A stretch of DNA of 64,000 bases, from the NCBI GenBank assembly GCA_951406725.2, contig OX597814.1:62186001-62250000 (forward strand), written 5' to 3'. This stretch comes from Octopus vulgaris (lineage: Eukaryota). The position numbers and the translations under genes are program-made. The notes under the pieces are model-generated. The model made no database searches and was not told where the DNA came from. It worked only from the letters and a program-made list of their open reading frames with translations. Positions 24,601-30,600 of this stretch are shown here, in pieces (within the stretch, counting starts at the first letter, position 1; each line of letters starts with the position of its first letter).

Positions 24601-27600
24601 TTTATGTAAAAATTTATTTTATGTGATGAAAAGAAACAAAAAAATAGTAGTTACCTCTTTCTCTTCAGCATTATACACTGGAGCAGTAGGATGGAGAACA
24701 GCCTTTTGAGCATAGTAAAATAATTCACTAATATTTTTCATAGTTTTAGCAGAACACTGCAAATAAAGAAAATATGTTCAAGTATAGAGATGATAATTAA
24801 AATAGTTATCTGGAATTAATTACAATGATGCATTTTAAAAATTTTCCTCATCTTTTCCTTATTTCTTATCTTTCCATGTTATTGAAGCGATTGTGAATGT
24901 GATGAAAGGACTTTGGCAAACACAACTGATTAACTAAATGATTAATCAAACAATTGATTAGTTGATTGGTTAAATAGCTAACCAACTGATGAATAATACA
25001 GAAGTGAAATTGGACCAGTGAATGTGTTTATTACTGGTATGACAACCCTCAAGCTACAACAAGAGTTTTGCTCTGAAATTTCCCAATATGTAGAAATTCA
25101 GATAAATAAGGTTTACAAGATACTAGGTTTAATACAACAAAAGGAAACAAGCAGGAGTCCCTATTCATCAATAATTTGATTAAACGTATATTTGAACCCT
25201 TCAGTCCACTGCAGCTTCTAAAATAGAGAACTGGTCAAATTAGACTTGCATTACACCTTCAGAGAAAACACAGACTTCCAAAAATGGCCAGCTAAGTCAA
25301 TCTCATCCTGCTCTTTTCATATTTTTAAGCGTTTTGTTTGGATAGCTTGATCTGTTCTCCCTTCGTTCCTCTATTCTCTAAACATGGCGACTTCAGGCAT
25401 TGCATTTTTAAAGTTTATTTTCCTTCAGTGCCATTCTTCGATGTTTATCCCATTCTCCTCCGAAAATATGCCCCCTCGTCTCTCACCGTATTTTTTTTTT
25501 TTCTTCATTATTTATCTATTTTCATTCTCTACCGTATTTTTTTCATTATTTATCTATTTTCATTCTCTCTCTGGCTTTCATTCAGTCATTTATCTAATTA
25601 ATTATTTTTCCCTCTCAAATATAGTATTCAAACTAGTTGCTTCGATTCTCTCTCTCTCTCTCTCTCGTGTTTCCGTCCCCCTCCCTAATTCCCTTATAAA
25701 AGCCAGCGTGCGATCGTATCTGATCCCTATTCACTCGCTACACCTTCAGAGAAAACACAGACTTCCAAAAATGGCCAGCTAAGTCAATCTCATCCTGCTC
25801 TTTTCATATTTTTAAGCGTTTTGTTTGGATAGCTTGATCTGTTCTCCCTTCGTTCCTCTATTCTCTAAACATGGCGACTTCAGGCATTGCATTTTTAAAG
25901 TTTATTTTCCTTCAGTGCCATTCTTCGATGTTTATCCCATTCTCCTCCGAAATATGCCCCCTCGTCTCTTACCGTATTTTTTTTTTTTTTTTTTTTCCAT
26001 TATTTATCTATTTTCATTCTCTACCGTATTTTTTTCATTATTTATCTATTTTCATTCTCTCTCTGGCTTTCATTCAGTCATTTATCTAATTAATTATTTT
26101 TCCCTCTCAAATATAGTATTCAAACTAGTTGCTTCGATTCTCTCTCTCTCTCGTGTTTCCGTCCCCCTCCCTAATTCCCTTATAAAAGCCAGCGAGCGAT
26201 CGTATCCTATTCACTCGCTACACCTTCAGAGAAAACACAGACTTCCAAAAATGGCCAGCTAAGTCAATCTCATCCTGCTCTTTTCATATTTTTAAGCGTT
26301 TTGTTTGGATAGCTTGATCTGTTCTCCCTTCGTTCCTCTATTCTCTAAACATGGCGACTTCAGGCATTGCATTTTTAAAGTTTATTTTCCTTCAGTGCCA
26401 TTCTTCGATGTTTATCCCATTCTCCTCCGAAAATATGCCCCCTCGTCTCTTACCGTATTTTTTTTCATTATTTATCTATTTTCATTCTCTACCGTATTTT
26501 TTTCATTATTTATCTATTTTCATTCTCTCTCTGGCTTTCATTCAGTCATTTATCTAATTAATTATTTTTCCCTCTCAAATATAGTATTCAAACTAGTTGC
26601 TTCGATTCTCTCTCTCTCTCTCTCTCTCGTGTTTCCGTCCCCCTCCCTAATTCCCTTATAAAAGCCAGCGAGCGATCGTATCCTATTCACTCGCTACACC
26701 TTCAGAGAAAACACAGACTTCCAAAAATGGCCAGCTAAGTCAATCTCATCCTGCTCTTTTCATATTTTTAAGCGTTTTGTTTGGATAGCTTGATCTGTTC
26801 TCCCTTCGTTCCTCTATTCTCTAAACATGGCGACTTCAGGCATTGCATTTTTAAAGTTTATTTTCCTTCAGTGCCATTCTTCGATGTTTATCCCATTCTC
26901 CTCCGAAAATATGCCCCCTCGTCTCTCACGTATTTTTTTTTTTTTTTTTTTTCATTATTTATCTATTTTCATTCTCTACCGTATTTTTTTCATTATTTAT
27001 CTATTTTCATTCTCTCTCTGGCTTTCATTCAGTCATTTATCTAATTAATTATTTTTCCCTCTCAAATATAGTATTCAAACTAGTTGCTTCGATTCTCTCT
27101 CTCTCTCTCTCTCTCTGTTTCCGTCCCCCTCCCTAATTCCCTTATAAAAGCCAGCGAGCGATCGTATCCTATTCACTCGCTACACCTTCAGAGAAAACAC
27201 AGACTTCCAAAAATGGCCAGCTAAGTCAATCTCATCCTGCTCTTTTCATATTTTTAAGCGTTTTGTTTGGATAGCTTGATCTGTTCTCCCTTCGTTCCTC
27301 TATTCTCTAAACATGGCGACTTCAGGCATTGCATTTTTAAAGTTTATTTTCCTTCAGTGCCATTCTTCGATGTTTATCCCATTCTCCTCCGAAAATATGC
27401 CCCCTCGTCTCTCACCGTATTTTTTTTTTCATTATTTATCTATTTTCATTCTCTACCGTATTTTTTTCATTATTTATCTATTTTCATTCTCTCTCTGGCT
27501 TTCATTCAGTCATTTATCTAATTAATTATTTTTCCCCCTCAAATATAGTATTCAAACTAGTTGCTTCGATTCTCTCTCTCTCTCTCGTGTTTCCGTCCCC

Positions 27601-30600
27601 TTCCCTAATTCCCTTATAAAAGCCAGCGTGCGATCGTATCCTATTCACTCGCTACACCTTCAGAGAAAACACAGACTTCCAAAAATGGCCAGCTAAGTCA
27701 ATCTCATCCTGCTCTTTTCATATTTTTAAGCGTTTTGTTTGGATAGCTTGATCTGTTCTCCCTTCGTTCCTCTATTCTCTAAACATGGCGACTTCAGGCA
27801 TTGCATTTTTAAAGTTTATTTTCCTTCAGTGCCATTCTTCGATGTTTATCCCATTCTCCTCCGAAAATATGCCCCCTCGTCTCTCACCGTATTTTTTTTT
27901 TCATTATTTATCTATTTTCATTCTCTCTATTTTTCTTATTTATCTATTTTCTTTCATTCAGTCATTTATCTAATTAATTATTTTTCCCTCTCAAATATAG
28001 TATTCAAACTAGTTGCTTCGATTTTGTCGCCCACCCTCCCCCACCACCAATACCGGAAGTTTCTACCCAAATACCGGAAACTACCCCCTCCCCCACTAGC
28101 ACCTATGTAGGGCTTATCTGAACATATAGCGCAAAAATTGTGAAAAGTATGCAGGTTGTAGTCTAGAGTTTCCATATGAAATCTGCCAAATGCAAGCTTT
28201 CTTTTCAGGTACATGACACTGCTGTCCCTCGTCCCAGGGTCTCTGATGCCCACACCTCCCAAACCCTCAGAGTTGGCACGCTCAACGTTGGCACATTGAA
28301 AGGTAGGTCTGGAGAGATTGTAGAGCTGCTTGAACGGAGACGTGTGGATGTATGCTGTATCCAGGAAGTAAGGTGGAGAGGAGGTTCTGCTAGGCTCCTC
28401 ACGGGCAAGGAACACAGGTACAAGATTTTCTGGGCAGGGAACATTGACGGAGTCGGGGGCGTGGGTATACTTCTTGCGGAGAAATGGATAGGTAAGGTAA
28501 TCGAGGTAGTCAGAGTAATTAAAATTAGATTAGTTCTTCACCATAGGACAGCTACCATCATCTCGGCATATGCCCCTCAACCAGGGCTACCGGAAGGACA
28601 AAAAGACCAATTCTATGACACCCTATTGCGGACTACCTCATTGACAAATGACAGTGACCTTCTCTTCGTGGCAGGTGATTTCAATGGACATGTTGGACGA
28701 CATGTCAGGGGCTTCCATGGCATCCATGGAGGCCACGGTTTTGGCTCTCGAAATGAGGAGGGAACCAGGCTGCTGGAGTTCTGCGATGCAAATGACCTTA
28801 TGGTCTGCAATACCCACTTCAGGAAACCCACCTCTCACCTAGTCACCTACCGTTCTGGCAGACACACCAGCCAGATTGACTACATCCTTGCCAGAAAAAG
28901 GGAAAGAGGGCTGATTATAAATGCCAAAACCTTCCCAGGCGAAGAATGTACTCCCCAACATAGATTAGTAGTTAGCGACTTCAGGATCAGAGCTAAATGG
29001 TTGCCCAGAAGAAGACCAGCTTGGAGGAGAAGGGTCTGGAAGCTTAAAGATCCTGCAAATGGACAGAGATTTAGAGACATACTACTCGAAGCCTCTGACG
29101 AAATAGAAGGGGATATAGCTCCACTTAATGTGGAAGACAACTGGAGATTCCTACGGGACAATCTGCTGACAGCCACTGACCAGATCTGTGGATGGAGCAA
29201 AGTACCATCTCGACCCAGAGTTACATGGTGGTGGAACACGGTGGTTGACGGGGCTATTAGACAAAAGAGACAGGCTTGGAAGGACTGGAAGAACAGTGGT
29301 AGCAGGGAATTGTATCAGACAGCCAAAAGGGAAGCTAGGAGACAGGTTTATTTAGCCAGAGGGGAAGCGGATAAGAAAAAATTTGCCAATGTTCTGAGCC
29401 GTGAGGATGAAAGACTTGAGGTATTTCGTGTTGCAAGACAGTGTGTGAGAGAGAATCGTGATGTGGTAGGAGAGAAGTGTGTTCGCATGTGGATGATGGT
29501 TCACTTGCGCTAAATGAGGATGCAAAGAGAGAGGTTTGGAGATGCCACTATGAAAGTTTGCTGAATAAAGAAAATGAATGGGATAAAGAGAGTCTGCCAA
29601 ATGTTGACCCAACAGAGGGACCAGCTATCCGAGTTGATAGTTCCGTGGTAGCTAAGGCAATTAGAAGCATGAAGACAGGGAAAGCCCCAGGCCCATCAGG
29701 AATTACTGCAGAGATGCTCAAAATATCTGGCAGTGTCGGCTATAACCTAGTCACCCGTATAGTCAACCAGGTGATACACGAAGGAGTCATACCCAATGAC
29801 TGGTGTAGCAGCATACTAGTCAACTGCTACAAAGGTAAAGGTGATGCCCTGGATACAAATAATTACAGAGGTATCAAGCTGTTGGATCAGGTAATGAAGG
29901 TTACGGAGAGGGTCATAGCCCAACTAATTAGAGAGAGAGTTAGTTTAGATGAGATGCAGTTTGGGTTTGTCCCAGGGAAAAGCACCACTGATGCTATATT
30001 CCTGGTAAGGCAGCTGCAGGAGAAATACCTAGCCAAGGATAAGCCCCTGTACCTGGCTTTCGTTGACATGGAGAAAGCCTTTGATAGGGTCCCCCGATCC
30101 CTCATCTGGTGGTCAATGAGGAAACTAGGGATAGATGAATGGCTGGTGAGGGCTGTGCAAGCCATGTACAGAGATGCCGTAAGTAAGGTTAGAGTTGGCA
30201 ACATGTACACAGAAGAATTCAAAGTAGAGGTTGGGGTCCACCAGGGTTCAGTACTCAGCCCCCTCCTATTTATCATAGTCCTCCAAGCAATAACGGAGGA
30301 ATTCAAGACAGGTTGCCCCTGGGAGCTCCTCTATGCTGACGACCTCGCTCTAATCGCTGAGTCACTATCAGAACTGGAGGAGAAGTTCCAGGTGGAAGGA
30401 AGGAGGGTTTAGAATCGAGGGGCCTTAGAGTCAACCTAGCTAAAACCAAAGTACTAATAAGTAGAAAGGTAGAAAACCCACAAATATCCTCAGGAAGATG
30501 GCCCTGATCGATCTGTAGAAAAGGTGTAGGTAGAAACTCTATAAGATGTACCCAGTGTAAGCTATGGACACATAAGAGGTGCAGCAATGTCAAAGGTAGG

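Follow-up and report, generated by a model that had tools for sequence, protein, structure and literature searches.

A candidate tandem-monomer 5′ end in a minor subfamily of octopus RTE elements

We have identified a candidate bipartite 5′ end on a long interspersed nuclear element (LINE) of the RTE type in Octopus vulgaris. The element lies in a window of 64,000 nucleotides (nt) taken from contig OX597814.1 (positions 62,186,001 to 62,250,000), and all coordinates below are positions within that window. Upstream of the LINE's open reading frame (ORF), and on the same strand, stand a tandem array of closely similar monomers and a short linker, or tether. On balance, our analysis points to monomers and tether as the two parts of the 5′ end in a low-copy subfamily within an abundant group of octopus RTEs, in which the monomers would be putative, stackable RNA polymerase II promoter modules. 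That the array and the linker belong to the 5′ end of the LINE is highly probable; the predictions on transcription are less firm and are graded where they are discussed.

A reading of this stretch from its sequence alone (hereafter the sequence-only reading) had proposed six units head-to-tail before the RTE ORF on the same strand, and both Tandem Repeats Finder (TRF) and unit alignment bear this out. TRF reported a tandem array at 25252-28023 with a period of 486 nt, 5.8 copies and 95% matches, which consists of five complete units of 472-487 nt and one partial unit, starting at 25252, 25739, 26219, 26695, 27181 and 27653. Units 1-5 differ from one another by 1-6 substitutions per ~470 aligned nt, plus changes in microsatellite length. 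Unit 1 (25252..25738, + strand, 487 nt) carries a 6-nt insertion between its TATA box and initiator (Inr), also present in contigs of sequencing run X16. Units 2-5 (25739..27652, + strand; 480, 476, 486 and 472 nt), delimited by TRF, unit alignment and motif scan, share a layout in which a head with two YY1-like sites is followed by a T-rich body that contains a 38-nt internal duplication, a (CT)n tract, a C-rich box, TATAAAAG and TTCACT. Unit 6 (27653..28023, + strand) is a partial unit of 371 nt recognized by unit alignment; it is without the (CT)n-TATA-Inr segment, holds a 22-nt segment special to it, and is the most divergent, with 5-8 substitutions relative to the other units. The linker (28024..28175, + strand) occupies the 152 nt between the array and the in-frame ATG at 28176 and contains C-rich boxes, two CCGGAA ETS-type sites and two upstream ATGs; it is multi-copy beyond this locus in the contigs described below. 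The ratio of observed to expected CpG is 1.12 in the unit; the ORF has 0.42, and the remainder of the window 0.25. An Rfam scan returned a single chance-level match (E 0.66) and no ribozyme, folding of the head and the linker gave nothing unusual (z 0.6-1.1) and no stable linker fold, and no homologue was found for an antisense ORF that crosses the junction.

The motif scan agreed with the sequence-only reading on the placement of the TATA/TTCACT, YY1 and ETS motifs, including the longer spacing in unit 1. TATAAAAG is present in all five complete units (25695, 26181, 26657, 27143 and 27615), and the distance from its first T to the A of TTCACT is 32 nt in four of them and 38 nt in unit 1. The YY1-like motifs AAAATGGCC and AACATGGCG occur in six of six units and are absent from the remainder of the window, while the ETS-type CCGGAA sites, at 28053 and 28074, both fall in the linker. 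Chance levels were estimated with 5000 dinucleotide shuffles, using patterns picked once the sequence had been inspected. A pair of YY1-like sites, counting both strands, was reached in 2 shuffles (P = 0.0004) and ACCGGAAGT, the strongest single motif of the linker, in 3 (P = 0.0006); TATAWAAR gave P = 0.04. We count the CpG richness and the YY1- and ETS-like motifs in favor of a LINE 5′-end promoter, as CpG-rich sequence with YY1/ETS-type motifs marks vertebrate L1 5′ ends (PMC5381506). The monomers probably have promoter activity. A TATA-dependent transcription start at TTCACT is also predicted, with somewhat less than even confidence.

The position at which the array begins is relevant to such a start. 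Unit 1 starts 6 nt past the in-register Inr A (this copy begins at +7), as the sequence-only reading had noticed, and by our own estimate a random break would bring the array start within 10 nt of an Inr with a chance of about 2%. Apart from a single mismatch and two additional bases, the left flank at 25243-25251 resembles the stretch from Inr to head; this may reflect a true 5′ end at Inr A, microhomology at the junction, or chance.

Public contigs from four of 24 listed runs (X1, X2, X6 and X16) were aligned to 27590-32700, a stretch that runs from one monomer's worth of sequence through linker and LINE into unique 3′ flank. X1 and X2 may be RNA runs, and we claim no expression from them. 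Contig depth is not copy number, and since the two DNA runs, X6 and X16, are flagged as incompletely counted, their depths are used as orders of magnitude only. Single-copy flank has a depth of 55-65 in X6 and 21-23 in X16, and the monomer head reaches 11,904 and 1,034, respectively. Linker depth is 310-523 in X16 (523 for the contig that holds the linker and the start of the ORF), and the bin that holds monomer tail and linker stands at 16,243 in X6. Monomer and linker are both multi-copy, and of similar order, in two of two DNA runs. Within the first 250 nt, the common genomic monomer is distinguished from all six window units by three substitutions (27703, 27771 and 27797) and three 1-nt indels, and most monomers in the DNA runs carry alleles missing from the window array.

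The joins between these parts also recur in contigs of other animals. In X2, where the single-copy flank has a depth of zero, a 515-nt contig (record 18, 27903-28439) bridges monomer tail, linker and ORF at a depth of 9.6, with four other letters and 22 gap letters relative to the window. The gap matches in length the 22-nt segment peculiar to unit 6, and we infer that it is this segment that the contig lacks. A further contig (X1 record 2) crosses the linker join with only 30 monomer letters, where the bridging rule needs 31. The TATA segment is joined to a head in contigs from two studies (X1 record 1 and X2 record 17), and its depth of 635 in X16 is far above the expectation for five local copies; the 6-nt insertion of unit 1 is found in all of the X16 contig depth at that place (635.4/635.4). 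Subtracting the TATA segment from the head in X16 (1,034 - 635) leaves ~400, of the same order as the linker (310-523). The X16 depths fit an element that has a single linker with n heads and n-1 TATA segments, at about two heads and one TATA segment for every linker. The contig of the X16 head starts at 27657, 10 nt past the Inr A (+11), a start that a nearby variant could also cause.

The contig data favor a monomer that is part of the LINE 5′ end over an unrelated satellite. The sequence-only reading had kept the latter as a caveat, which is now weakened by the multi-copy monomer and linker, by the TATA-to-head junction found elsewhere, and by a monomer-linker-ORF contig that differs from the window. 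Its suggestion that an RTE lineage had acquired the array is partly supported, as regards the association with a LINE 5′ end; it does not extend to the whole lineage, since depth rises ~20- to 100-fold at the start of the ORF.

The body of the element is of RTE type. A single endonuclease and reverse transcriptase ORF (28176..31286, + strand), delimited by the ORF list, Pfam and contig comparison, encodes an Exo_endo_phos domain (an apurinic/apyrimidinic, or APE-type, endonuclease) followed by RVT_1. It is interrupted by frameshifts near 29490, 30395 and 30690 and by one in-frame stop, and is single once these breaks are read across; with its ORF broken, this copy is non-autonomous. No second, ORF1-like frame of at least 150 amino acids was found upstream on the + strand. 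The 3′ untranslated region (UTR; 31287..31886, + strand) contains a 63-nt tandem repeat of 3.2 copies at 31532-31732 (TRF) and an RTE-related motif at 31757-31780 (motif comparison), and is followed by a (TGA/GAT)n microsatellite tail recognized by inspection (31887..31905, + strand). A single APE plus reverse transcriptase ORF and a 3′ microsatellite tail are RTE-clade traits; of the L1-clade traits, ORF1 is missing and the tail is a microsatellite instead of poly-A. Among named proteins, the nearest come from Octopus bimaculoides (81%) and O. sinensis (64%), and the O. bimaculoides protein P0002 has its N-terminus in common with the LINE ORF, from the same ATG. The nearest named matches, from Octopus, are labelled 'craniofacial development protein 2-like', which we take to be the RTE endonuclease.

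Eleven codons into the ORF, at 28197-28209, lies a polypyrimidine-CAG that strongly resembles a splice acceptor, and the O. sinensis protein P0030 has FQ and then M at the matching position. An intron ending at this site (28208/28209) was considered but finds no support; the bridging contig is unspliced there, and the donor-like word in the head is without GT. The window holds four more RTE copies, all on the minus strand and 5′-truncated (8256-9413, 15937-17055, 37385-37899 and 40505-41628), which are 72-86% identical to the main copy; none of them extends to the 5′ end.

Several observations weigh against a tandem-monomer 5′ end. Within the first 600 nt of the ORF, depth rises from ~500 in the linker to 6,000-94,000 at the listed sites in X16, and from ~16,000 to >100,000 at most listed sites in X6. 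With a jump of ~20- to 100-fold, this 5′ end is confined to a minority subfamily, and therefore most relatives (at least 90% identity) are without it and have another or a shorter one. The TATA segment reaches a depth of only 125 in X6, versus 635 in X16, and both of these runs are incompletely counted. The bridging contig carries the rare allele of the window at 28403 (139 of a depth of 67,735 in X16 and 5,565 of 292,491 in X6) and could be the same locus in another animal. The tail-to-(CT)n junction, which would show tandem units in other copies directly, lies outside the aligned stretch, and from depth such units are probable. The X6 contig of the 3′ flank (record 32) has 332 letters upstream of 31920 outside the alignment (X16 contig 40, as expected with the LINE present), and may belong to an allele that is empty or has another structure. 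At the level of motifs, the combination of a TATA box and a BBCABW Inr at 28-34 nt is statistically weak, as 143 of 5000 shuffles reach it and the background frequency is 0.10 per 480 nt. TTCACT does not fit the strict YYANWYY Inr, the 38-nt TATA-to-Inr spacing is the majority form in X16, and the stretch from the last Inr to the ATG of the ORF contains six upstream ATGs.

A target-site duplication (TSD) is also missing; none of at least 8 nt exact, or of at least 7 nt with one mismatch, was found at the array start, in agreement with the sequence-only reading that no TSD links array and LINE. In MELT output, the prefix 'd' marks a target-site deletion. For a polymorphic RTE of O. bimaculoides, which is another family in another species, a multi-base TSD appears in one of the six rows resolved by split reads among the first 18 of 55 PASS rows. 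RTE TSDs are mostly 7-15 bp (PMC6007223). The missing TSD is not decisive against a LINE 5′ end, and lowers certainty on the 5′ boundary more than on the clade.

The alternative that fares best, although we consider it unlikely, is that the monomer is a single-copy segment of the 5′ UTR, a recruited promoter, and that its six-fold repetition arose locally once the element had inserted and plays no part in renewing promoters; the real promoter may in that case be the ETS/C-box linker. Local amplification is likely in the window, where the six units share alleles (27703, 27771, 27797 and the three 1-nt indels) unlike those of the common monomer. The X6 bins show monomer and linker at ~1:1, and it is the linker that holds the strongest single motif (ACCGGAAGT, P = 0.0006). 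A single unit is harder to reconcile with the TATA segment, which lies upstream of the predicted start and is nonetheless multi-copy in X16 (635 versus 21-23 in the flank) with the unit-1 insertion. Variants of unit 1 and of units 2/3/4 are both found elsewhere in the contigs, and heads outnumber linkers ~2:1 in X16.

Less probable still, and in our view improbable, is an array that derives from a separate mobile element with tandem repeats, of the Helitron/Helentron type or a miniature inverted-repeat transposable element (MITE), or from a dispersed satellite, with the RTE inserted beside it. Helitron/Helentron- or MITE-type elements bearing tandem repeats occur in bivalves, and Helitron/Helentron ends have a TC start and a 3′ hairpin with a CTRR end, or subterminal inverted repeats. 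The absence of a TSD joining array and LINE, CTAG motifs at 28096 and 28163, the sharp change in depth near the ORF start and the 332 unaligned letters of the X6 flank contig are all compatible with such an origin, and 80 families of satellites appear in the annotation of O. vulgaris (PMC13282606). For Helitron/Helentron ends the picture is mixed: the linker has its CTAG motifs, the array starts with TA rather than TC, and the linker has no stable fold. Against a separate element, a terminal inverted repeat between head and linker is not above chance (339 of 1000 shuffles reach its score). The join of monomer, linker and ORF occurs at a depth of 9.6 in X2, a run without cover of the single-copy flank, and the linker passes seamlessly into the ATG region conserved with the O. 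bimaculoides RTE protein P0002. Unlike those of a satellite, the heads are not vastly more numerous than the linkers.

That an error of assembly has turned one or two real units into six is very improbable: the units are ~99% identical and a spanning read is absent from the data, but they differ by substitutions and by the 6-nt insertion, shared in non-adjacent patterns, window unit variants recur in independent contigs, and the window allele at 27703 has a depth of 374 in X6, ~6x that of the flank, a ratio not repeated at other X6 sites.

If monomers and tether do form the 5′ end of this RTE subfamily, the array could renew itself as follows. The (CT)n/C-box/TATA segment of each unit would start transcription at TTCACT, just before the next head, with help from YY1- and ETS-type sites that follow downstream. 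The 5′ end of a new copy would fall a few bases inside a head, as in unit 1. Each retrotransposition would then spend one unit, in that the promoter that made the copy is lost and the promoters of the downstream units are kept, and occasional tandem duplication would replace the spent units. The window array itself has likely grown or been homogenized locally, because all six units share alleles missing from the common genomic monomer. The ORF of the window copy is broken, and therefore the array here is predicted to drive only non-coding RNA, antisense to the host gene Miro. More tentatively, and with less confidence than in the predicted start site, an ordinary upstream TATA promoter may have been captured and made heritable by tandem duplication, independently of rodent L1, in a lineage that also moved the ancestral RTE 5′ motif to the 3′ UTR.

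This last possibility draws on related RTE loci. An RTE alignment search kept 80 loci in metagenomes and 4 in GTDB genomes, of which 69 of 84 have >200 nt upstream, and 0 loci in viral contigs. The monomer pattern had 0 matches in metagenome contigs and 0 in viral contigs, and neither monomer nor linker matched any of the 84 loci. Direct repeats occur upstream of the match in 15 of 69 loci, nine of them inside an open frame. None of the 69 upstream regions has anything resembling a near-identical array of ~480 nt, which is no evidence of absence, as short-read contigs would collapse arrays. Of these 69 loci, 18 carry a 24-nt motif upstream of the ORF and one carries it downstream. In the octopus family, this motif is absent from the array and linker (best match with 10 mismatches of 24) and is found 3′ of the ORF, in the main copy (31757-31780, +) and in all four other ORF-bearing copies of the window (8380, 15964, 37503 and 40632, all -). 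Such a relocation is consistent with a lineage in which the ancestral 5′ UTR was replaced. A conserved motif or domain has been described in RTE 5′ UTRs (PMC5786205); we make no claim that it is identical with the 24-nt motif.

The octopus 3′ UTR has the 63-nt tandem first and the motif second, and the same order (a 64-nt tandem of 3.1 copies, then the motif) is seen at the 5′ end of a metagenome RTE relative, L019. There, three 93%-identical 64-nt units lie upstream of an open frame at the start of the contig (1-330), a possible small-monomer 5′ array in another eukaryote. The tandem and motif of the octopus 3′ UTR look like a 5′-UTR module that has been relocated, or copied, to the 3′ end. 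The region 31532-31780 has the highest contig depth of the aligned stretch, which suggests a very abundant derivative resembling a short interspersed nuclear element. The four GTDB loci (L081-L084) are RTE-like eukaryotic LINE sequence on short contigs in bacterial metagenome-assembled genomes and are probably binning contamination.

The array and LINE are placed within an intron of Miro, and antisense to it, because minus-strand Miro exons recognized by protein match lie on both sides. One exon, at 24661..24768, matches Mitochondrial Rho GTPase 1 (E 5e-13); on the other side (33372..33741) are an exon at 33631-33741 (E 6e-6) and a predicted exon at 33372-33422. Elsewhere in the window, broken PIF1-type helicase frames at 54055-55358 (+) are probably a Helitron remnant, and TRF reported a 232-nt tandem duplication at 36800-37252 (1.9 copies, 77%).

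How a LINE retains its promoter when it is copied is a fundamental question, and known answers include internal promoters, ribozymes and the tandem monomers of rodent L1. If our reading is correct, the monomer-array solution is convergent across LINE clades and phyla, and a precise promoter would be in hand for a group of LINEs whose activity in the octopus brain has been proposed (PMC9115989). Dead copies would leave multi-promoter cassettes that fire antisense in host genes such as Miro, and at this locus one could test directly whether a dead LINE is transcribed antisense into a gene as conserved as this one of mitochondrial transport. Because arrays of this kind collapse in short-read assemblies, they may be under-reported in repeat libraries. 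In the literature searched, a coverage that lay outside most subscription papers, Repbase and Dfam, we found no promoter of tandem monomers described for an RTE or a cephalopod LINE; a curated O. vulgaris repeat library (PMC13282606) may already include this 5′ end. Both the monomer strategy (rodent L1) and 5′ switching (plant RTEs) are known, and what is new, as not found in print, is their combination in a mollusc RTE.

The closest architectural parallel is LINE-1 of mouse and rat, in which CpG-rich tandem monomers and a short tether likewise lie 5′ of the ORF, with a YY1-type motif, several units per copy and an incomplete 5′-most unit. Mouse L1 has 1.5-3.7 units on average, and its 5′ ends cluster close to the YY1 site (PMC9022269, PMC5381506), and the rodent monomers are followed by a ~250-bp tether (PMC5381506). 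At 480 nt, the octopus monomer is between those of mouse (~200) and rat (~650) in length. Unlike rodent LINE-1, the octopus element belongs to another clade (single ORF, no ORF1, microsatellite tail) and another phylum, and we claim no sequence homology; the likeness rests on architecture, and the promoter activity of the octopus monomers is putative. A TATA-like box precedes each octopus head, whereas 'TATA' occurs 0 times in the main text of the mouse monomer paper. The Nicotiana SolRTE elements (bioRxiv 10.1101/2022.11.04.512097) share the RTE clade, and in these plant RTEs 5′ UTR switching has been described, with a conserved body and exchangeable 5′ UTRs that contain putative TATA boxes, a given 5′ end being common to a subset of copies only, as in octopus. 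They differ in their plant host, and the words 'tandem' and 'monomer' occur 0 times in the main text of that preprint.

Octopus vulgaris RTE-2_OV resembles our element in having one ORF, a cysteine-rich region and a 5′ UTR of ~600 nt (PMC9115989), a length at odds with the statement of the sequence-only reading that RTE elements have short 5′ UTRs, which does not always hold. It is another family; four of four published primers tested mismatch the octopus LINE at 5-7 of 19-20 positions, and the RTE-2_OV 3′ UTR is described as mostly microsatellite. Five short motifs had no match in supplementary files of PMC9115989, but the text searched is far smaller than the transcriptome and the blank carries no weight. 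Ribozyme-headed RTEs (Schistosoma Perere-3, twister variants; PMC8501958) likewise represent an RTE solution for a defined, transcribable 5′ end. They appear to use host promoters and self-cleavage (PMC8501958), in contrast to the octopus array, which has no Rfam ribozyme match. Dictyostelium TRE5-A, unlike the octopus LINE, is a two-ORF, tRNA-gene-targeting element of an amoeba host. Its A-modules occur in tandem. The parallel with octopus lies in a 200-bp 5′ A-module with promoter activity and in a 5′-UTR module that has been duplicated into the 3′ UTR (PMC3159450).

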